Below are positions 37,211-47,471 of a stretch of DNA of 64,000 bases, piece by piece (position 1 is the stretch's first letter; each line of letters begins with the position of its first letter). Location of the stretch: the NCBI GenBank assembly GCA_016182385.1, contig JACPGV010000011.1:22888-86887 (forward strand), written 5' to 3'. A program made the position numbers and the translations under genes. The stretch is from Candidatus Moraniibacteriota bacterium. GTDB lineage: Bacteria > Patescibacteriota > Minisyncoccia > Moranbacterales > UBA1568. Below the pieces are notes generated by a model. The model ran no database searches, was not told where the DNA came from, and saw nothing but the letters and a program-made list of their open reading frames with translations.

Positions 37211-37669
37211 ATGCCACCAATTCGAAAAATAACACCGTACACTGCTCACGCGACAGGGAAAGAAGTTCATGAACTCATCAAAAGCCTTGCTCCACATGGT
37301 GTCCAAAACGTTGAACAGGCAAAAGATGTCCTTCGTGAAGCCTTCAGTCGCGGATATCCTCTCGAATTCGCTTTGGGCATCGGCGATCAAGTCCTCCGTT
37401 ATTGCGTTCTGGCGTTTGCAAGGAGACATCACATCAGAACCAATGTGTTCCATGACGTGAATCCCCGCGTCATTTTACTGCTCTTTCTGCAGACGGCGCT
37501 CGCTGGCAAATACAAGCAACAGCTGGATGAATTACGAAGCCTGCGAAATTTTTTCACCGAAGAAAACATCGAGCAACTCGCTCGAGAGACAGGAAGATTC
37601 TCCGAAATACAACGAGCTCATTCTCTCCGTCGTCGTCAATCGACGGAAAGGAGTCTTGCCAGAGCATAA
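37211..37669 (+). CDS. hypothetical helical protein (152 aa)
   Basis: ORF with SD-like AAGGGU upstream, ending just before a strong plus-strand intrinsic terminator; preferred over the overlapping 113-aa minus-strand ORF. Confidence 0.35.
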   Translation: MPPIRKITPYTAHATGKEVHELIKSLAPHGVQNVEQAKDVLREAFSRGYPLEFALGIGDQVLRYCVLAFARRHHIRTNVFHDVNPRVILLLFLQTALAGKYKQQLDELRSLRNFFTEENIEQLARETGRFSEIQRAHSLRRRQSTERSLARA

Positions 37670-38818: not shown

Positions 38819-38893
38819 AGAAACACTGTAGCAAATATACAAAAAAACAAAAACCCTTGGTCACTACGCGGTAGTTTCCAAGGGTTTGCGAAA

Positions 38894-39235
38894 TCACTTC
38901 TTCTCCTCCTCTATCCGCCGCGCGCAAGCCGCTGCAATCTCTCGGATCATGAAGTTGAGCCGAGCGATTCGAGCCTCACTTTCATGATAGAGCTCTCTCC
39001 GTTTCTTTTTGTAATCATTTTGGACGGAAGGAGTAATAAGCTTGGTTCCCGATTCCACAGATAACTCCAGAATTTCAATATAAGAATCCTGAAGACTATC
39101 CATCATCTCGGAATACCCCGCTTGCTCCGCTTCAATACTTCTTTGAAGCAGTATAATGCTTACTTCGGCTACGGTTACAAAGTTCTCCGAAGTTCGCACC
39201 GTCTCAAGCGTCCTTTCAATAATTTCCTTATCCAT
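38894..39235 (-). CDS. hypothetical small helical protein (weak Rx4H motif, possibly HEPN-like)
   Basis: 113 aa, all-helical; contains KRRELYHESE (an R-x4-H spacing). It directly flanks the AbiE toxin-antitoxin pair; no confident family assignment. Confidence 0.35.
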   Translation of the reverse strand: MDKEIIERTLETVRTSENFVTVAEVSIILLQRSIEAEQAGYSEMMDSLQDSYIEILELSVESGTKLITPSVQNDYKKKRRELYHESEARIARLNFMIREIAAACARRIEEEKK

Positions 39236-39361
39236 CTTGCGCTCCTTTCTGAAAAAACTTTTCCCTTGAACGCCGGGAAATGTAGCGTTCGTAAATTTGC
39301 ATACGAAGTTTAATTATACACCTTTTTAGGCGTTGTGTCAAGGTTTTTGCCTTAGGCAATT

Positions 39362-40159
39362 TTACTTTTCAAAACTCTGTAAATATTCTGGAAGTTTCAA
39401 AATCCATTTCGCTTGTTCCGGATAAAATAAAAACCTCTCGACATCTTTTGCTGCCTGTTCCAGATTGCTCTTTCTCGCCTGCTGTGTCAAAAATTCTACC
39501 AACATATGACGATTCGTAATATCAAGCTTCTTTTCTTTAAAAAGAGCATAGTTCGGCTCCAAATCCTTTTGACTCAAGAACCATACCAAATCATAAAAAT
39601 CGCGTCCTTTTTGATATGGACGAAAAATAATAGCAACGACTTTTTGAGCGAAAAGTGTTTCCAGAGAATTGACCAACAAAGGAAAACGCTCATTAAAACT
39701 ATCAGAGAATTTCGTTTCCGTGCGCGCTTTCTTGAACGGATTGAAATCAATTTCAAATTTGATAAGCATCTTTTCATTTTCTTGAACATTCAGACCGAAT
39801 TCCCATAAAACATCCTTGAATCTGAAATAAATAGTATGGATATTTTCAGTCGTTTTCGTACGCGCATCGACTTGAAATCCCTGCATATCCAACTTGTTTC
39901 TGATATCAGCCATCAATTCCTCGATATGAAATCCTTCTTTTTTTACCAGATCAAAATACAAATCTTCCGAAAAACGGTTGATTCCATATGCAAAACGAAG
40001 ACACGCACCACCCATGAATGAAATGCTGTCATTGAACTTGCTCAAAGAAAGTGCTTTGAGAATCTGCGTCTGCAAATATTCGAGTAAAATATTGCGATCC
40101 TGCCACGGAATATTTCTCTCTTCTGCGTATTTTTTAAAAAAGTCTTTACTCGGTAGCAT
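39362..40159 (-). CDS. AbiEii/AbiGii-family nucleotidyltransferase toxin (type IV TA toxin, DUF1814)
   Basis: GGACLRFAYGINRFSEDLYFD... matches the nucleotidyltransferase-fold core of AbiEii. Start set at MLPSKDFF (ATG at 40159), 8 nt after the AbiEi stop; the track's 40258 start overlaps AbiEi. Confidence 0.75.
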   Translation of the reverse strand: MLPSKDFFKKYAEERNIPWQDRNILLEYLQTQILKALSLSKFNDSISFMGGACLRFAYGINRFSEDLYFDLVKKEGFHIEELMADIRNKLDMQGFQVDARTKTTENIHTIYFRFKDVLWEFGLNVQENEKMLIKFEIDFNPFKKARTETKFSDSFNERFPLLVNSLETLFAQKVVAIIFRPYQKGRDFYDLVWFLSQKDLEPNYALFKEKKLDITNRHMLVEFLTQQARKSNLEQAAKDVERFLFYPEQAKWILKLPEYLQSFEK

Positions 40160-40769
40160 AATATTTGATAAAACTTTTAGTAAGAAGCGAAACCTTTTTA
40201 TTTTGAAAGGCCTCGGCAAATCCCAGTAATTTTTTCGTATCAAAAACAAAGTCCTCATTGAAACGATATCCTCGGAATTGTTCCGAATCTCCGTTTAAAA
40301 TATTGCGTTTCAAATAAAAAAAATCCACCAGTGCCTTTTCTGGCAATGCCATATTAAAGGAAATTTTCCCGTCCTTTTTCGTTTCATATCCGCCAAATGC
40401 GCTCTTTTTGATTTTCTGATAACTGAAACGTCCCAATTTCGTATCAAACTCTTTCGTTTTCCTTGTCGTCACCGAAGTCACCGTAAACACAGCCTCCGGA
40501 ATAATTCCATAAAAACTCAACGCCTTTTCCATGCTCACATAGGATGGTTGATACATTTTTGTCGCAAACCACACAGGATCCGCATTTTTTGCCTCCTCAG
40601 CGACAACATACATACCTCTTCTCAACATAATAAGATGACCCTTGTTAACCCAATTTTTCAGATTAACAAGCATGGTACTTGTGAACGCACCACCCAGAAC
40701 AAGCCTCAGTTCTTTCGTTTCAAAAAGCGGCAATTCTTCAACTTTTTTTCTAAATTCAAAATAATTCAT
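40146..40769 (-). CDS. AbiEi-family antitoxin/transcriptional regulator (type IV TA antitoxin)
   Basis: N-terminal wHTH-like region and the conserved PSYVSMEKALSFYGIIPE motif of AbiEi antitoxins; 207 aa; immediately upstream of AbiEii. Confidence 0.75.
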   Translation of the reverse strand: MNYFEFRKKVEELPLFETKELRLVLGGAFTSTMLVNLKNWVNKGHLIMLRRGMYVVAEEAKNADPVWFATKMYQPSYVSMEKALSFYGIIPEAVFTVTSVTTRKTKEFDTKLGRFSYQKIKKSAFGGYETKKDGKISFNMALPEKALVDFFYLKRNILNGDSEQFRGYRFNEDFVFDTKKLLGFAEAFQNKKVSLLTKSFIKYYATE

Positions 40770-40783
40770 TTCTTTTACTAATA

Positions 40784-40812
40784 GAATTATATCAATAAAA
40801 GAATTATATCAA
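40784..40812. promoter_or_regulatory. tandem direct repeats with embedded -10 boxes in the AbiEi promoter region (candidate autoregulatory operator)
   Basis: Two 13-nt direct repeats, AGAATTATATCAA on the plus strand and TTGATATAATTCT on the coding strand, at 40784-40796 and 40800-40812 (16-bp period), each containing TATAAT, within 45 nt upstream of the abiEi start in a >80% AT region. Confidence 0.4.
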
Positions 40813-40912
40813 AAATATTTTATATTGTCAATATACTAATTTTATTGCTTAATATAAGAATTTTTCTCTTTTTTATAAAGATATCCGACTATTCTATCTA
40901 AACCCCCGCAAA

Positions 40913-41275
40913 TCAATGTTTTTCTTTGACTGGAGGATCATTTTTCCCCTCACCTCGAATCTCAATAATCCCCCGAATCACCGCCATAACAATAAAGTAG
41001 TACGCATACACAGCAAATTCTTCTGCACGTTCTGGCCTCTTCAAAAGATGAAGGATTGGAGTAAATAGAAGAAACAAAAGCGCTGCTCCCGCCAGTAGTC
41101 TACTTGGAATAGGCCCAATAAGTGACCAGATAAAAATCAAAAAGATGATAATTTCTACCATGGTCCAATCAAAATAGACTCCCAAGACTGCTCCTAGCAC
41201 CGGAAGTACAATATCTACTTTTCTAGAGATAACAAAATGCCGTACCCGTCCTTCAAGTTTCTCTTCTGATCCCAT
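40913..41275 (-). CDS. small 4-TM membrane protein (GtrA-like size and topology)
   Basis: ~120 aa from MGSEEKLEG with four predicted TMs; the stop of the upstream YfhO-like gene lies 5 nt before it. The track's longer form (to 41431) overlaps that gene. Confidence 0.35.
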   Translation of the reverse strand: MGSEEKLEGRVRHFVISRKVDIVLPVLGAVLGVYFDWTMVEIIIFLIFIWSLIGPIPSRLLAGAALLFLLFTPILHLLKRPERAEEFAVYAYYFIVMAVIRGIIEIRGEGKNDPPVKEKH

Positions 41276-41279
41276 ACGA

Positions 41280-43460
41280 TTACCGGTTAGATTTATATTG
41301 CCACCTCTTTCTCCACTCACTGGCAAGCAAAATAGAAAGAACAAAAAGACTGACTCCGGTAATCCACATACCGACATATAAGAGACGTGCCGGCAGGTAG
41401 TACAGGGAAACGTTTCCTCCCTTTCGATCACGATCTAATCTCCAGGCATTGGCATGCTGAATGCTGTTGTCCCGAGTCAATGAGACTTTGTTTCCAGCTA
41501 GATCAACATATTCCGCTCTCCAGAGAGAATCGTAGCGCTCATTCAAGAAAATAGTGGCGTCCTGCTTCATATCCACCACCGGTACCATAATTTCTCGTGG
41601 ATTTTTTCTCTGGTATGCCAGTTCTTCTATATTTTCACGTAGCGCCTGTACAGACTGCGAAAGTCCTTCTATTTTCATCGGAACAAATGGGGCATTGATC
41701 CCTACAAATACGTATGGAAACACCCGCTTCTCTTCCAAAGTATAGAGAGTAAAAAAATCATTCTCTTTTACTTTCTGCAACGCTCCAGTTCTTTCAAGGT
41801 ATTCCTTAGCTCCTTCAAATTCTTCTTGATTCTCCTTACGAGTATCCTTATGAAAAAACACATACTCAACCCCTAGAAGACCGTAGAGATCAGTTATCCA
41901 CTGCGGGTCATGCTGACTCTCAAACTCCGTAGCAAACATCCAATGAGGAATGTAGTAGTCATACAGCTCTACGTATTTTTTACTATACAAACGATACGCG
42001 ATATCGGGACCATTGACCTTCCAAGTAGGAAAATTCACTCTCCCGACGCTCGAACCAGGAGCGTACGGCAACATTGCAATCTTACTGTCCTTTTTACTTG
42101 ACTCAATGACTGAAGCGACATCATAATATGCCTGAGGAACCTCTACGAGAGCACTATACTTAGCCTTGGTATAGTCCTTGGCTTTCTGACCAGAAAGAGC
42201 AAAGCTCAATTTTGTCTGAAGGCCGCCTACGTAAAAAGGAAGCGCCAGAATAATCGTCATGAGAAGAAATGAGAGCATAAGGAAACGAGCATACTTCTTT
42301 CCTTCAAATGATTGAAGGAAAAGTAGAAGAAGTCCTGAAAGAAGAAATGGAGTTATCGTAGCCAGCTTATCCCAGCCACGCAAAGTATTGAATCCTGGCA
42401 GAGTGAATAGAAATTCGTTCATAGACTCAAATGGGAAACGCACTCGTGCCACCAGAGCCATGAAAATAAATGTGAGCATGAAAAAGGCACCGAATATCTT
42501 TTGGTCCCTCGAACTCCTTTTCCGAAAGAATCCATACAACGCCAAGAAAAAAGGAATGAAAGCTATGAAGGCTATCACTCTCTTTGCTTGAGAAAAATCT
42601 GGGTATGGAAAATTCATTGGATAATAGCGTTCCTGCTCACTCGTAGGAAGTAATCGAATCGTATCCGAAAAAGCATTCGACGTCTCCCTTAATCGCTCTG
42701 AAAGATCAACAAATTCTGAAGTATAAACTGCTTGTACGCCACCTCGTAGCTGAGGTATCTGTGGCAACAACCAGTAGGTGTTCATGAGAGCCGCTCCAAA
42801 AACAAGCATCCCTATTTTAAGCAAAGTCTGACGATCAAAAGGGATGGAACGGAAAAGAAACAGTGCGAGCGTAAGAAAAAAGAATAAGATACCAAGAGAC
42901 AGAGCAAAAGCCGGATTTCCAAAACTCGTCGAAGCAAGAAAAGCAACCCCCACAAAACCGTAGCTAAAAATTCTCTGAGATGATTCGAGAGCTTTGATAT
43001 ACATCCCTACCAGAAGAGGAATGAATATGTACAAGACCTGATACGAACTATACCCCCAAGCAGCAGTGAAGACATAGAGTGTATAGAGATTCGTAGCGTA
43101 AAAAAGTGCGGAAAGTGACCGTGTCAGTCCAGATGACCTCGAGAACACCAATGCACAAAATGACAGAAACGAAAAAAATGAACCAAGAAGGAATATTCCG
43201 ACATACCAAGAAAGTTGAGCCGTATCACTAATACCTAGTTGGTCAATAATGTAAAAGACGCCATAAAATAATGAAGCGCTGCCGAAAGCATCGTAATGAA
43301 AACGAACAAAATTTTCGGTCATGTTAATAGCCTGAATAACATCCCCGCCAAGCAAAATATGTCTCGCAGGAAAGATATTCATGAGAGTACATAAAACAAG
43401 AAGAAATACTCCTATTGTTTCCCATCGGTACCGAAGTAGAATGTGTCGTACTCTCTCCAT
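41280..43460 (-). CDS. YfhO-like GT-C-fold membrane glycosyltransferase (paralog 1)
   Basis: 726 aa. ~13 N-terminal TMs with an acidic GGDV motif in the first extracytoplasmic loop, a ~300 aa extracytoplasmic domain and a single C-terminal TM (LLYVGMWITGVSLFVLSILL); this is the topology of YfhO/ArnT-type GT-C enzymes. Confidence 0.5.
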   Translation of the reverse strand: MERVRHILLRYRWETIGVFLLVLCTLMNIFPARHILLGGDVIQAINMTENFVRFHYDAFGSASLFYGVFYIIDQLGISDTAQLSWYVGIFLLGSFFSFLSFCALVFSRSSGLTRSLSALFYATNLYTLYVFTAAWGYSSYQVLYIFIPLLVGMYIKALESSQRIFSYGFVGVAFLASTSFGNPAFALSLGILFFFLTLALFLFRSIPFDRQTLLKIGMLVFGAALMNTYWLLPQIPQLRGGVQAVYTSEFVDLSERLRETSNAFSDTIRLLPTSEQERYYPMNFPYPDFSQAKRVIAFIAFIPFFLALYGFFRKRSSRDQKIFGAFFMLTFIFMALVARVRFPFESMNEFLFTLPGFNTLRGWDKLATITPFLLSGLLLLFLQSFEGKKYARFLMLSFLLMTIILALPFYVGGLQTKLSFALSGQKAKDYTKAKYSALVEVPQAYYDVASVIESSKKDSKIAMLPYAPGSSVGRVNFPTWKVNGPDIAYRLYSKKYVELYDYYIPHWMFATEFESQHDPQWITDLYGLLGVEYVFFHKDTRKENQEEFEGAKEYLERTGALQKVKENDFFTLYTLEEKRVFPYVFVGINAPFVPMKIEGLSQSVQALRENIEELAYQRKNPREIMVPVVDMKQDATIFLNERYDSLWRAEYVDLAGNKVSLTRDNSIQHANAWRLDRDRKGGNVSLYYLPARLLYVGMWITGVSLFVLSILLASEWRKRWQYKSNR

Positions 43461-43468
43461 AACATTAC

Positions 43469-44998
43469 TTATCGTAATTTTGAAACACTGGCATGAACAG
43501 AAAACTCATTGAACCCGAAAAACCCTGATGATTTCTCCTCACCTACGTAAGTTGCTTTGACGTAGACTGTTTTCGCTACTCTGTTCCCTGGTAACGTCAA
43601 CAAAAACCGTACCCGCCCAGATGATTCCTCTACAAATGGAATTTCCTGCCAATGTTCCTTATCCAGAGAATACTCCAATTGAATTTCTGACAAATCATCG
43701 CCGTCCTGTTGTGCATCCAAAGCAAAAAATTCGAAGGGACGCCCTGTTTCAAATCGATACATGAGATACTCCCCTGTCTTCTGACTTCCTGTGATAATCT
43801 TCCTCTCCCTGTCGAAGATGATACTTTGACTCGCCTCGTAGAGATTATCATAATCAACTGGGTCGTGTCTCAATTGGAAAGCATAGAGAAGCTTCTTCCC
43901 TAAATCCTCCAACTTCGCTCCATCAGGAAAGCTATCCGCCCCATTCAACCGTGCCCGTTGGCCAATATGCACAAAAAGATCTCCCTTTTCCTTAAATTCT
44001 TTCGGGTCAACCGTCTTCTCCAATTCGCCTAAAGAAAAGAAGTTTTCTGGGTCTTTATCCTTTGGGCCAACAAAATTAAGAGCATACCAGCCGCCCTGTT
44101 TCAAAGGAAAAGAGAAAGGGAGTAGGAAATTACCAGAAAAAATTCTCATACCATTCAAAGCGTCCAATACGAAGGGTATCCTTTGAAGAGGAGCTGATTC
44201 TTTTTCTTTCGTTACACTATTGTAACGAAAGAGTTCAAAAGCATATTCTTGTCTCCCGCCACCATCTATTTTTCCTGAAAATTCGAGCGACCGAATAAAA
44301 TCACCGTCAGCCTGAAAAAGCCATTCTTTTTTCTGAGAGCTTTTATCTATATTATTTACTGAAAAAAGCTCTCGATGACTAGTCTCCGAGATACCATAAA
44401 AAGTAGGCATGAGACTGACTGCTTCAAAGCGAGTCTGCACTTCAAGCGGCGTGATATCAAAAGATTTTATGAAAACTTCTGGATCATACCATTCCATTTC
44501 TGAAACCTCAGAATTCTTTTTCAATCGAATAATAAGGTCCTGATACCTCCCAGGCGTGGAAAAGACTACTTCACGATATTGACCCTTTTCATCTGGTTCA
44601 AAAGTCCATGAGCTGATGGGCAGTATTTCATTTAGGGAAGATCGAGCCAATACCTCGACCTGTTCTTTATCCTTCGTACTCACATGAATGCCCAGGCGAA
44701 AAAAATCATTCGTTCGAGATTCGAAAAAATTCTCATAGATTTTCTCTGGGATTTTTTTAGTAAGATCGGGTCGAAAAACAAAGGCTGATTTTTCCTTCTT
44801 TGATTCAGGCTTCTTCACTACCTGATCAGGTGCTACAGCCTGATGCCAGAGGTAGGCGGTAAGAAAAATAAAAAGAATGAAGAAATAGCGAAAGTATCTC
44901 CCCAAAAAGACTCCCATTTTCCTAATCACTCCGTGAATTTCTTTCATGTTCTTCATTTTGGATATTTTATCAGTTCTGAGATGATTTGTCATGGTCAC
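43469..44998 (-). CDS. hypothetical membrane-anchored extracytoplasmic protein (509 aa)
   Basis: Single N-terminal TM (YFFILFIFLTAYLW), then a ~450 aa soluble domain; sandwiched between, and overlapping, the two YfhO-like paralogs. Confidence 0.45.
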   Translation of the reverse strand: MTMTNHLRTDKISKMKNMKEIHGVIRKMGVFLGRYFRYFFILFIFLTAYLWHQAVAPDQVVKKPESKKEKSAFVFRPDLTKKIPEKIYENFFESRTNDFFRLGIHVSTKDKEQVEVLARSSLNEILPISSWTFEPDEKGQYREVVFSTPGRYQDLIIRLKKNSEVSEMEWYDPEVFIKSFDITPLEVQTRFEAVSLMPTFYGISETSHRELFSVNNIDKSSQKKEWLFQADGDFIRSLEFSGKIDGGGRQEYAFELFRYNSVTKEKESAPLQRIPFVLDALNGMRIFSGNFLLPFSFPLKQGGWYALNFVGPKDKDPENFFSLGELEKTVDPKEFKEKGDLFVHIGQRARLNGADSFPDGAKLEDLGKKLLYAFQLRHDPVDYDNLYEASQSIIFDRERKIITGSQKTGEYLMYRFETGRPFEFFALDAQQDGDDLSEIQLEYSLDKEHWQEIPFVEESSGRVRFLLTLPGNRVAKTVYVKATYVGEEKSSGFFGFNEFSVHASVSKLR

Positions 44999-47471
44999 TT
45001 TTTTGCCTTTTTTCCTTTTTTAGAGCTCTTTTTACCAAAAGCAGCGAGTACCAAAGGAGACCGAGACCGGAAATAATTATCCCAATATATGAGACCCTCT
45101 GAGGCCAAAATTCTATAATCACTTCGACATCCTGAGTTTCATCTTTATTCTTCAGACAACTCTCAGACTGTTCCTGGCATATAGCATCTATATCAAGAAC
45201 CCAGGCGTTGGCGTAACCATTGACCACAAGTTGTCTATTCTTAGTATCGAGAGGTTCTTGAAACCACGTTTCAGAAAAGCGAGCCTCTACGAGATTATCA
45301 TTTTGAACGGTGTTAAAGAACTTTTTTGAGACAAAATCGATAGAAAATTTCTCGATAAAATCAATCTTCCCTCGATAGTCATCCCATTTTTTGTGAACAA
45401 TACTTTTTTCTTTTCCGTCTCCCAGCTCCGTGACACTCCCCTCGTTTACGAGCCTCACAAGTTCATCGCTATCAGCCTGAAAATATTTATTCTTTTCCAA
45501 TATCTTGTATTCCTTCAGTCGAGAGAGGAGTGACCCACGATCCTGATAAGAACTCTTTTTTTCCGCCAAGTATATGTTCCAATCTTTATGATACTGTTCG
45601 CTCAAAACCAGCACGACGTTCCCCTGTGCACCGTGCAAACGTACTCGATACTGCGTCGGATTGATTTTCTTGTACTCAACACTCGCCCCGGAGAAAATTC
45701 CTCCTCTGTCTATATCAGCATTTATCTCATTATCCTGAAACGAAACTTTCCGCTCAGCATGACGAATAGGCGAGTTATCAAGAAGTATTTGCGTTAATGG
45801 TGCGTCATCAAAGGTACCAATACTTTCGGCCGTATACAACTGTGGTAAAAATTCGTTTCGATCGACATACTGAATAGAGAGAAAACCCTCTTGAAAAGCC
45901 GGTACTGTATTCTTCACATAATAAACAATTTTGTTCATCAAGGAAGCGTCTTCGAATATGAAACCAACTGCATGATTCGAGAGACTCCCGAGAACCTTGT
46001 CATACCCCAAGTTATAGTTTGTGTACAAGAAGTTGTAGATAATTGGCCCAAAGAATCCCCACTGGGTATTGAGGTACGTCAGATCACTGTTGGGATAGAA
46101 CGTCCGGACGTTCATTTTTTGGTAATCAATAAACTCGCGCACCTTGTAATACTCATTTGGGATATGAAAACCACGTTGCTGAATGTTCGTATATTGGTTG
46201 ATCCCGTTGAAATTTTTATAGTACTCCCCGTTCCAGTATGGGTATCCGACATAGATCGTCACAACAAGTATAAGAGAGCTAAAAAAGAACCGTTTTCTTG
46301 GAATTTGTTCGACAAAGAAAAACAAAAGGAGCGCATAAAATACCGAGAGGAAAAAAACTGCTCCCGCTGTCGTTCGCAAAAAGGCTAACAAAGGCACACT
46401 CGCAACAAAGTGCTCATACATCTGCCCAAAAGGCTTATTTGGTCCCGCAGCAAAAAAGAGATAGATGACAAGAAGAAGCCAAACGATGATCTCGTCTCTC
46501 TTATCTACATTGTGTTCGGAGTGAATAATAAGCAGTCGTGCAAAGATGATAAAGACAAAGAAATAGCTCAGGATCAAAATGAGAGCACTCGAATTATAGG
46601 AAAGAACATCCAGATGATTCAGAAAGATAGAATCTTGATGAAGCTTCAATATCTTATCCATGGTATCCACGCCGAAATTCATCATCTTGCCAATATCCTT
46701 GTACCCCGACTTCACTTTTACCCCATAGTCGATGGGATCATAGTTTAAGGTGAAATTTGCTAAAGGCAAAAATAAATAGGCCGAAAGAACAAAGGCGAGT
46801 GAAAATTTTATGAACACCTTTCGCAGCTCTACACCAGTAATTTTTTGAAGACTCCAATTAGCAAAGAAAATAATTGCTGAGATGAGAAAAAGATGAAAAA
46901 GGTACTTCGGGTTCGGTAGATCTAGAGAGCAAAAAGCCAGTATCACATTTAACCAAAGTGCCGTTCCGATGGTGACGTCTTTCTCCTTGACGATCCTAAA
47001 AATGAAATAGATGAACCAAGGAGTAAAAGCGTACACAAATATGTAATGGTAGGCATTGAGAAGAGCTGGGGAGAGGAGATAGAACACGATCGGCACCAAG
47101 AGTTCTAGTCGTTGCGCCTTTGGGGAAAAAAGCTGAGCCAGTTTGTAAATACCAAATCCCGCAATCAACGTTAGAAAAAATAATAAGACTGCAGAAATAA
47201 AAAGGATATTACCCGTAAAAAGCTCGGCCACCCAGTACATGATGTAAAAAACATAGTAGTTCACGGCGAAGTATTGGCCATTTTTCATCTCTATCCACTG
47301 ATAGAGATATTTTTCCAGCCCCTCACTGTTGAATGGTATGAGTACATCGCCCCCGATAGAAAGACGCCCCCAAGTATAAAAAGCTGGTAACAGTGCTAAC
47401 CCAAAAATAACCAGTTCGGGAGAGTACCGAACGAGCAACCTCAAAAATGTCTTCCAAATCTCTCGGTTCAT
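44970..47471 (-). CDS. YfhO-like GT-C-fold membrane glycosyltransferase (paralog 2)
   Basis: 833 aa; same architecture as 41280..43460. The N-termini are alignable (LLVRYSPELVIFGLALLPAFYTWGRLSIGGDV vs ILLRYRWETIGVFLLVLCTLMNIFPARHILLGGDV); C-terminal TM IGIIISGLGLLWYSLLLV. Confidence 0.5.
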   Translation of the reverse strand: MNREIWKTFLRLLVRYSPELVIFGLALLPAFYTWGRLSIGGDVLIPFNSEGLEKYLYQWIEMKNGQYFAVNYYVFYIMYWVAELFTGNILFISAVLLFFLTLIAGFGIYKLAQLFSPKAQRLELLVPIVFYLLSPALLNAYHYIFVYAFTPWFIYFIFRIVKEKDVTIGTALWLNVILAFCSLDLPNPKYLFHLFLISAIIFFANWSLQKITGVELRKVFIKFSLAFVLSAYLFLPLANFTLNYDPIDYGVKVKSGYKDIGKMMNFGVDTMDKILKLHQDSIFLNHLDVLSYNSSALILILSYFFVFIIFARLLIIHSEHNVDKRDEIIVWLLLVIYLFFAAGPNKPFGQMYEHFVASVPLLAFLRTTAGAVFFLSVFYALLLFFFVEQIPRKRFFFSSLILVVTIYVGYPYWNGEYYKNFNGINQYTNIQQRGFHIPNEYYKVREFIDYQKMNVRTFYPNSDLTYLNTQWGFFGPIIYNFLYTNYNLGYDKVLGSLSNHAVGFIFEDASLMNKIVYYVKNTVPAFQEGFLSIQYVDRNEFLPQLYTAESIGTFDDAPLTQILLDNSPIRHAERKVSFQDNEINADIDRGGIFSGASVEYKKINPTQYRVRLHGAQGNVVLVLSEQYHKDWNIYLAEKKSSYQDRGSLLSRLKEYKILEKNKYFQADSDELVRLVNEGSVTELGDGKEKSIVHKKWDDYRGKIDFIEKFSIDFVSKKFFNTVQNDNLVEARFSETWFQEPLDTKNRQLVVNGYANAWVLDIDAICQEQSESCLKNKDETQDVEVIIEFWPQRVSYIGIIISGLGLLWYSLLLVKRALKKEKRQKSDHDKSSQN

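Follow-up and report, generated by a model that had tools for sequence, protein, structure and literature searches.

An AbiE cassette of Candidatus Moranbacteria with a probably disarmed toxin and a conserved operator-like dyad at its promoter

The closest described relatives of the locus treated here, an AbiEi/AbiEii gene pair on the minus strand of contig JACPGV010000011.1, are the AbiE system of Streptococcus agalactiae and the MenAT systems of Mycobacterium tuberculosis. AbiE of S. agalactiae (AbiEi, SAG1284; AbiEii, SAG1285) is a bicistronic operon with the antitoxin gene in first place, and it combines a COG5340 winged helix-turn-helix (wHTH) antitoxin with a DUF1814 nucleotidyltransferase (PMC3985639; 10.64898/2026.01.19.700257). 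AbiEi represses its own promoter, and the operators characterised so far consist of inverted repeats overlapping that promoter (PMC3985639; PMC7319586). The S. agalactiae operator has the form IR1-N3-IR2, with repeats of 23 bp and the perfect core TGTTGCTTTTA-N27-TAAAAGCAACA (PMC3985639), while that of M. tuberculosis Rv2827c comprises four 23-bp repeats with gaps of 13 bp and shows negative cooperativity (PMC7319586). Active DUF1814 toxins (MenT1, MenT3, MenT4 and AbiEii) add nucleotides to the 3′ ends of tRNAs and thereby block translation (PMC10435456; 10.64898/2026.01.19.700257). The two aspartates of motif II are essential in S. agalactiae AbiEii: D67A, D69A, D67E and D69E all abolish toxicity, and a motif II double mutant does not bind GTP (PMC3985639). 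According to a preprint, AbiEi binds AbiEii and induces it to autophosphorylate T65, and on this ground AbiE is moved there from the type IV to the type VII toxin-antitoxin systems (10.64898/2026.01.19.700257). An AbiEii-AbiEi pair has also been recorded in a patescibacterial epibiont (one preprint).

The contig derives from a metagenome-assembled genome (MAG) of Candidatus Moranbacteria, a lineage of the candidate phyla radiation (CPR), as judged from the source annotations of identical proteins. The window, that is, the whole stretch of 64,000 nucleotides that was analysed, provides all coordinates given below unless a related contig is named. Twenty related AbiE loci were gathered from genome and metagenome contigs and yielded 14 distinct promoter sequences; AbiEii was compared with 120 homologues (cluster representatives, 69–85% identity) from MAGs of Moranbacteria and Parcubacteria. 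Alignment with the 20 related loci by blastn delimits a conserved AbiE cassette of ~1.5 kb (40857..39361, minus strand) that contains a promoter, a dyad-symmetric element, abiEi and abiEii.

On the evidence of its protein matches, the pair is a genuine AbiEi/AbiEii (COG5340/DUF1814) pair, as an original prediction made from the window alone had proposed on the strength of peptide motifs that are present in both open reading frames (ORFs). The abiEi gene (40769..40146, minus strand) encodes a predicted antitoxin and transcriptional regulator of 207 aa, which PADLOC recognises over its full length (residues 1–203; E = 3.5e-56). The abiEii gene (40159..39362, minus strand, with its ATG at 40159) encodes a full-length DUF1814 nucleotidyltransferase toxin homologue of 265 aa, matched by PADLOC over its full length (E = 6.5e-51) and by Pfam PF08843, the DUF1814 family (E = 1.8e-23; 84.2 bits against a cutoff of 22.5 bits). 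Profile searches had been put forward as the check on this assignment, and they bear it out through these matches. Elsewhere, AbiEi stays below the cutoffs of Pfam AbiEi_4 (16.6 against 25 bits, in the wHTH region at residues 16–57) and NCBIfam TAA_AbiEi (51.6 against 150 bits), a sequence search of the PDB with AbiEi returned no match, and a small third protein ascribed to the locus, discussed below, has no match in Pfam. The predicted gene order is antitoxin first, as in the bicistronic AbiE operon. The genes had been described as lying 8 nt apart; they in fact share an overlap of 14 nt (ATGCTACCGAGTAA), and both this overlap and the MLP(S/N)K start of AbiEii are kept in the related loci with a readable AbiEii.

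Compared motif by motif, AbiEii shares with its S. agalactiae counterpart the GG of motif I, the R-x-[S/T]-x-D of motif II, the K173 and R180 of motif III and the +DxxD of motif IV, all at near-equal residue numbers. Motif I (hG[G/S]) is represented by G50 and G51, and motifs III (K173, R180) and IV (R186-D187-F-Y-D190) are invariant in the family alignment. Equally invariant is S64, the phosphoacceptor position equivalent to T65, two residues before the first aspartate of motif II. The difference lies at the equivalent of D69, which is a tyrosine here. Motif II reads RFSEDLYFD (R62-F-S64-E-D66-L-Y68), whereas the family pattern is R-x-[S/T]-x-D-h-D, with a second aspartate where this protein has Tyr. 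The equivalence of R62, S64, D66 and Y68 to R63, T65, D67 and D69 of S. agalactiae AbiEii follows from the R-x-T-x-D-x-D pattern and from the alignments. HMMER likewise places Y68 opposite the second aspartate of NRFSEDLDFD in Helicobacter pylori JHP933 (4o8s) and of VDIDF in lactococcal AbiGII (9hlo_B). JHP933 (4o8s/4ok0) and AbiGII (9hlo_B) are the sole matches of AbiEii in a PDB sequence search, weak and local ones (E ~1e-3). JHP933 shares the motif II context exactly, but its second aspartate is the tyrosine here; both proteins retain both aspartates.

The substitution D68Y is a single-base change (GAT to TAT) at codon 68 (39958..39956, minus strand), which is GAT or GAC in the relatives. 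Aspartate occupies this position in 118 of the 120 homologues, and the whole string RFSEDLDFD is found in 117. A further unique change, T52A, is located directly after the GG of motif I (codon 52, 40006..40004, minus strand; ACN to GCG, again a single-base change), where 119 of the 120 homologues have threonine. Altogether, AbiEii departs from the consensus at three of 116 near-invariant columns (T52A, D68Y and I206L), while 77 of the 120 homologues depart at none. AbiEi deviates, and only mildly, at three of 123 near-invariant columns, which is within what its relatives show, and from its sequence the antitoxin looks intact. A protein identical to this AbiEii is encoded in Logan assembly L001 (SRR12113420). 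The toxin motif quoted in the original prediction, GGACLRFAYGINRFSEDLYFD, is thus present, and it lacks the second aspartate of the catalytic DxD (D-L-Y, not D-L-D); of the catalytic D..D pair, whose absence had been named as evidence against the prediction, the first residue has been kept and the second has indeed been lost. AbiEii is probably catalytically dead and no longer toxic, because Y68 corresponds to D69 of S. agalactiae AbiEii, where both D69A and D69E abolish toxicity.

The AlphaFold model of AbiEii is of moderate quality (predicted local distance difference test score, pLDDT, 72.9). Its top fold match in the PDB is 6j7p, the M. tuberculosis toxin Rv1045 (TglT/MenT3), with E = 1.7e-3 and a template modelling (TM) score of ~0.29, and the next matches are nucleotidyltransferases of the pol-beta type, which lends weak support to the family assignment. 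The MenAT pairs (Rv2827c-Rv2826c and Rv1044-Rv1045; PMC7319586, PMC10435456) would accordingly share the DUF1814 toxin fold, to the extent of this weak model match, and their AbiEi-type antitoxin similarly autoregulates through inverted repeats that overlap the start site. They differ in the number and spacing of those repeats, four of 23 bp with 13-bp gaps at Rv2827c, and in having far larger or more divergent proteins.

Two further members of the same AbiEii lineage are altered at the catalytic aspartates, P0014 (D68N) and P0109 (D66N). Since three of the 120 cluster representatives are altered at one catalytic aspartate, natural disarming of this lineage seems to be recurrent.

The promoter of the cassette is a near-consensus sigma-70 type, with a −35 hexamer TTGACA (40831..40826, minus strand) and a −10 hexamer TATAAT (40808..40803, minus strand) that match the consensus at 12 of 12 positions across a 17-nt spacer, the −10 being TG-extended. 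Between the −35 and the ATG, the 14 promoter sequences can be aligned gap-free. Conservation is concentrated in the −35, the −10 and the whole stretch from the −10 to the ATG, while the spacer between the hexamers varies. TTGAC of the −35 is invariant, the sixth base being G in three of the promoters, and the −10 is TACAAT in most relatives. Some 10 nt 5′ of the −35 lies another conserved block, TATTAAGCAATAAA (40852..40839, minus strand), with the consensus TATTAAGCCATAAA in 10 of the 14 promoters. It bears a loose likeness to the right arm of the dyad described below and could be either an UP-like element or an additional site for AbiEi.

A dyad-symmetric, operator-like element of 34 bp, TTCTTTTATTGATATAA|TTCTATTAGTAAAAGAA, begins with the final base of the −10 and ends immediately ahead of the ATG (40803..40770, minus strand); its idealised form is TTCCTTTATTGATATAA|TTATATCAATAAAGGAA. 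It is detected as an inverted repeat with 17-nt arms, no gap and 82% complementarity (14 of 17 pairs in the window). Over the 14 loci the mean is 13.8 of 17 pairs, with 16 of 17 in L017, against 5.5 ± 1.4 pairs for 405 other registers and gaps and 9.7 for the next unrelated register; when the intergenic region of the window was shuffled 5000 times, 14 of 17 pairs were reached in 25 cases. The leader RNA has no significant fold (−3.9 kcal/mol, z = 0.28), and an RNA hairpin in the leader was rejected on these values, which favours an element acting at the level of DNA. No further copy of the dyad half-site occurs in the 64-kb window at up to two mismatches. A second inverted repeat, with 26-nt arms and a 3-nt gap (40793–40818 and 40822–40847), mimics the IR1-N3-IR2 geometry of S. 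agalactiae; it was rejected as not conserved, having 20 of 26 pairs here and 5–16 of 26 in the relatives.

When the dyad is set beside the characterised operators, its outer motif TTCTTTTA-N18-TAAAAGAA appears to resemble the core TGTTGCTTTTA-N27-TAAAAGCAACA of S. agalactiae, at a spacing shorter by about one helical turn. The two elements differ in size (2 × 17 bp without a spacer here, 2 × 23 bp with a 3-bp spacer there) and in position, the S. agalactiae dyad lying across the −35 and −10 and the present one beyond the −10, where it covers the start site and the leader. The gaps of 0, 3 and 13 bp found here, in S. agalactiae and in M. tuberculosis might, although we regard this as doubtful, reflect a series of AbiEi operators in which the outer recognition motifs (N18, N27 and N37) are stepped by about one helical turn. 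By analogy with these systems, we infer that AbiEi binds the 34-bp dyad. The promoter region looks to be of the autoregulated type, as originally predicted, although by way of a different repeat.

Taken together, the locus is likely to be an AbiE cassette circulating in Moranbacteria and Parcubacteria that has recently been disarmed, a remnant with an intact antitoxin and repressor and not a working defence or addiction system. AbiEi would repress transcription from the near-consensus promoter through the dyad, which spans the full leader together with the region where transcription should start. The toxin would be neutralised by the C-terminal domain of AbiEi, which, in line with current evidence for the family, would bind AbiEii and cause it to autophosphorylate the Ser/Thr of motif II, here S64. 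If active, AbiEii would halt translation by attaching nucleotides to the 3′ ends of tRNAs; D68Y, at the second metal-binding aspartate of the pol-beta DxD, together with T52A beside the GG, would most likely leave a catalytically dead toxin. Most economically, a point mutation would have inactivated the toxin recently while the antitoxin and repressor was retained. The active role that had been envisaged, in phage defence or in stabilising the adjacent gene island, is not supported, given the lost second catalytic aspartate.

Several points weigh against this account. Apart from the substitutions, abiEii is a complete, full-length ORF, so that any inactivation is recent, or else the variant could retain part of its function. 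The Logan contig and the MAG may stem from the same reads, and fixation of the T at 39958 in the population is assumed from the assembled sequence. The dyad is backed by conservation and not by compensatory change, two Watson-Crick pair types being found at only three of its 17 pairs, and it overlaps the leader and the start-codon region, where conservation could instead serve translation initiation. Lastly, S. agalactiae AbiE gave E. coli no protection from 32 coliphages, which makes a defence role uncertain even for active homologues.

A fully functional AbiE toxin-antitoxin or abortive-infection module, in which Tyr68 is tolerated by the enzyme, belongs to a minority allele or arose as an error of sequencing or consensus building, is an unlikely alternative. 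It would account well for the full-length toxin ORF, for the integrity of motifs I, III and IV and of S64, and for an intact antitoxin behind an intact promoter that even matches the consensus perfectly; that a tightly controlled promoter and an antitoxin have been kept is best understood if the toxin can still do harm. Against it stand the same codon 68 in two assemblies, aspartate in 118 of the 120 homologues, the loss of toxicity that even the conservative D69E brings about in the characterised homologue, and the second unique change, T52A beside motif I.

The repeat that the original prediction regarded as the operator was a different one, namely two 13-nt direct repeats each with a perfect −10 box. 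These are real: TTGATATAATTCT has exactly two perfect matches in the 64-kb window, at 40812..40800 and 40795..40783 (both minus strand), each with a TATAAT, although their spacing is 17 nt and not the 16 bp given as the period. Copy 1 consists of the extended −10 and the first 4 nt of the dyad. Copy 2 straddles the centre of the dyad, taking in 9 nt at the inner end of the left arm and 4 nt of the right. With up to two mismatches the 13-mer occurs six times in the window against 3.5 expected, which is no enrichment. Should the direct repeats be the AbiEi operator, bound head to tail in tandem, or two tandem extended −10 promoters, the dyad would be incidental. Beyond the exactness and uniqueness of the two copies, such a reading could draw on their fit to the extended −10 consensus TGnTATAAT, including the second (TGATATAAT), and on a GATAYAAT core at 17-nt spacing in most relatives. 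It is nevertheless improbable. The two copies are identical (13 of 13) in this genome only, and identity falls to 7–9 of 13 in the 13 related promoters; copy 2 has become TATTTT or TACTTT, a poor −10, in L006, L007 and L025, yet TTTATTGATA and the right arm are kept there. Copy 1 is accounted for by the −10 box that pairs with the invariant −35, and the characterised AbiEi proteins bind inverted repeats. Autorepression through direct repeats, as first proposed, hence gives way to the 34-bp dyad as the conserved feature.

A disarmed copy might also be kept on purpose, either for anti-addiction or immunity against incoming AbiE cassettes or with AbiEi co-opted as a regulator, a suggestion that we regard as doubtful. 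If it held, an intact AbiEi expressed from a perfect-consensus promoter beside a dead AbiEii would neutralise incoming homologous AbiE cassettes.

The boundaries of the cassette agree with its being a mobile accessory unit in several respects. Homology to the 20 related loci (69–78% by blastn) starts at ~40,810–40,867 and ends at the abiEii stop codon (39,358–39,383), and the G+C content is 0.355–0.39 across the cassette against 0.42–0.47 in both flanks. The neighbours of the cassette differ among the related loci, and the neighbour genes of the window are found in none of them, apart from one short match in L021 to the gene for a 135-aa membrane protein. The cassette appears, from these sequence comparisons, to have been acquired horizontally and to be spreading among Moranbacteria, since the best non-self identities of AbiEii (85%) and AbiEi (80%) exceed that of the flanking QueA (69%; most QueA matches 57–65%). 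Around the cassette, no direct or inverted repeats were found that convincingly delimit a mobile element, and neither tRNA genes nor Rfam families were found as marks of an insertion site. The locus is an ordinary accessory AbiE cassette, of a system already known in Patescibacteria. Two of the related contigs carry a second, divergent AbiEi/AbiEii pair (~32–34% identity) in tandem, directly upstream of the close homologue (L006:2205-3561 and L007:437-1842).

The third gene that had been ascribed to the locus encodes a protein of 113 aa (39235..38894, minus strand, the strand of all three ORFs). It has a perfect promoter of its own outside the AbiE cassette (TTGACA-17-TATAAT, 12 of 12 positions; 39341..39313, minus strand), a GGAG ribosome-binding site and, as its likely terminator, a stem-loop (17-nt arms, 3-nt loop) that precedes a run of T (38887..38851, minus strand); its G+C content is that of the flanks and not of the cassette. 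The gene is followed by queA (~38818 to 37712, minus strand). None of the 20 related AbiE loci encodes the protein. A word-indexed search returned only the protein itself, while an exhaustive HMMER search found five homologues of 111–121 aa (27–41% identity). These are encoded directly upstream of queA in L033, L034 and L044 and upstream of a PAS protein gene and then queA in L040–L042, and no AbiE genes occur near any of them. Judged from this distribution, the 113-aa protein is a protein of the queA neighbourhood, outside the AbiE module.

The family is rare, with 6–7 known members, and occurs upstream of queA in several Moranbacteria-like genomes (window 38894-39235, minus strand; L044:5576-5929; L040:2767-3132; L033:561-908), has no match in Pfam and carries conserved SVESG..LVDTS and YKK.RR.MY segments. 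The AlphaFold2 model of the window protein (pLDDT 89.9) shows three helices (residues 3–15, 19–62 and 74–112) and found no significant fold match in the PDB, the best (E = 0.31) being among generic helical hairpins only. A HEPN identity was rejected, as R79 and H84 vary among six family members and neither Pfam nor the fold search gave a significant match; the Rx4H-like motif (R79..H84) noted earlier is present here and not conserved in the homologues. A SLATT identity was rejected as well (NCBIfam SLATT_5, 13 bits against a cutoff of 60; PADLOC, E = 0.0027 over 55 residues only). A three-gene system, with this protein as a HEPN-like or SLATT-like effector or an accessory regulator, has in its favour the adjacent position on the same strand, these weak SLATT-type matches and R79-x4-H84, and is very improbable and largely refuted by the absence of the protein from the 20 related AbiE loci, its own promoter and terminator, its flank-like G+C, its homologues upstream of queA without AbiE, and the variable R79 and H84 together with the lack of a Pfam or significant fold match.

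The genomic surroundings agree with the original description of the pair as standing at a junction. The low-coordinate side of the cassette carries the housekeeping genes for QueA, L9, CTP synthase and ScpA/B, and the high-coordinate side carries genes for four proteins without a Pfam match, followed by methyltransferases, GT4 glycosyltransferases and a GDP-mannose dehydratase. With housekeeping genes on one side and a glycan-type cluster on the other, the term boundary is a fair one. The four ORFs without a match (at E ≤ 0.001) are consecutive at 40913–47471 on the minus strand and encode 135, 726, 509 and 833 aa. The many long hydrophobic stretches in at least the 726-aa and 135-aa translations suggest membrane proteins, and the four may be uncharacterised membrane proteins of glycan assembly. 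A homologue of the 135-aa gene is also located upstream of AbiE in L021. On the other side, queA and the L9 gene are separated by a 152-aa ORF on the opposite strand (37211–37669, plus strand) that has no match in Pfam; in the related genome L043 the corresponding position is taken by an unannotated gene of 217 aa.

AbiE is among the most abundant annotated defence systems, and annotation based on hidden Markov models (HMMs) would count this locus as active. As the single change D68Y illustrates, HMM-based counts of AbiE can include disarmed copies. The comparative footprint at the promoter, for its part, provides a concrete candidate operator for an AbiEi of the CPR lineage and corrects which of the repeats matters.

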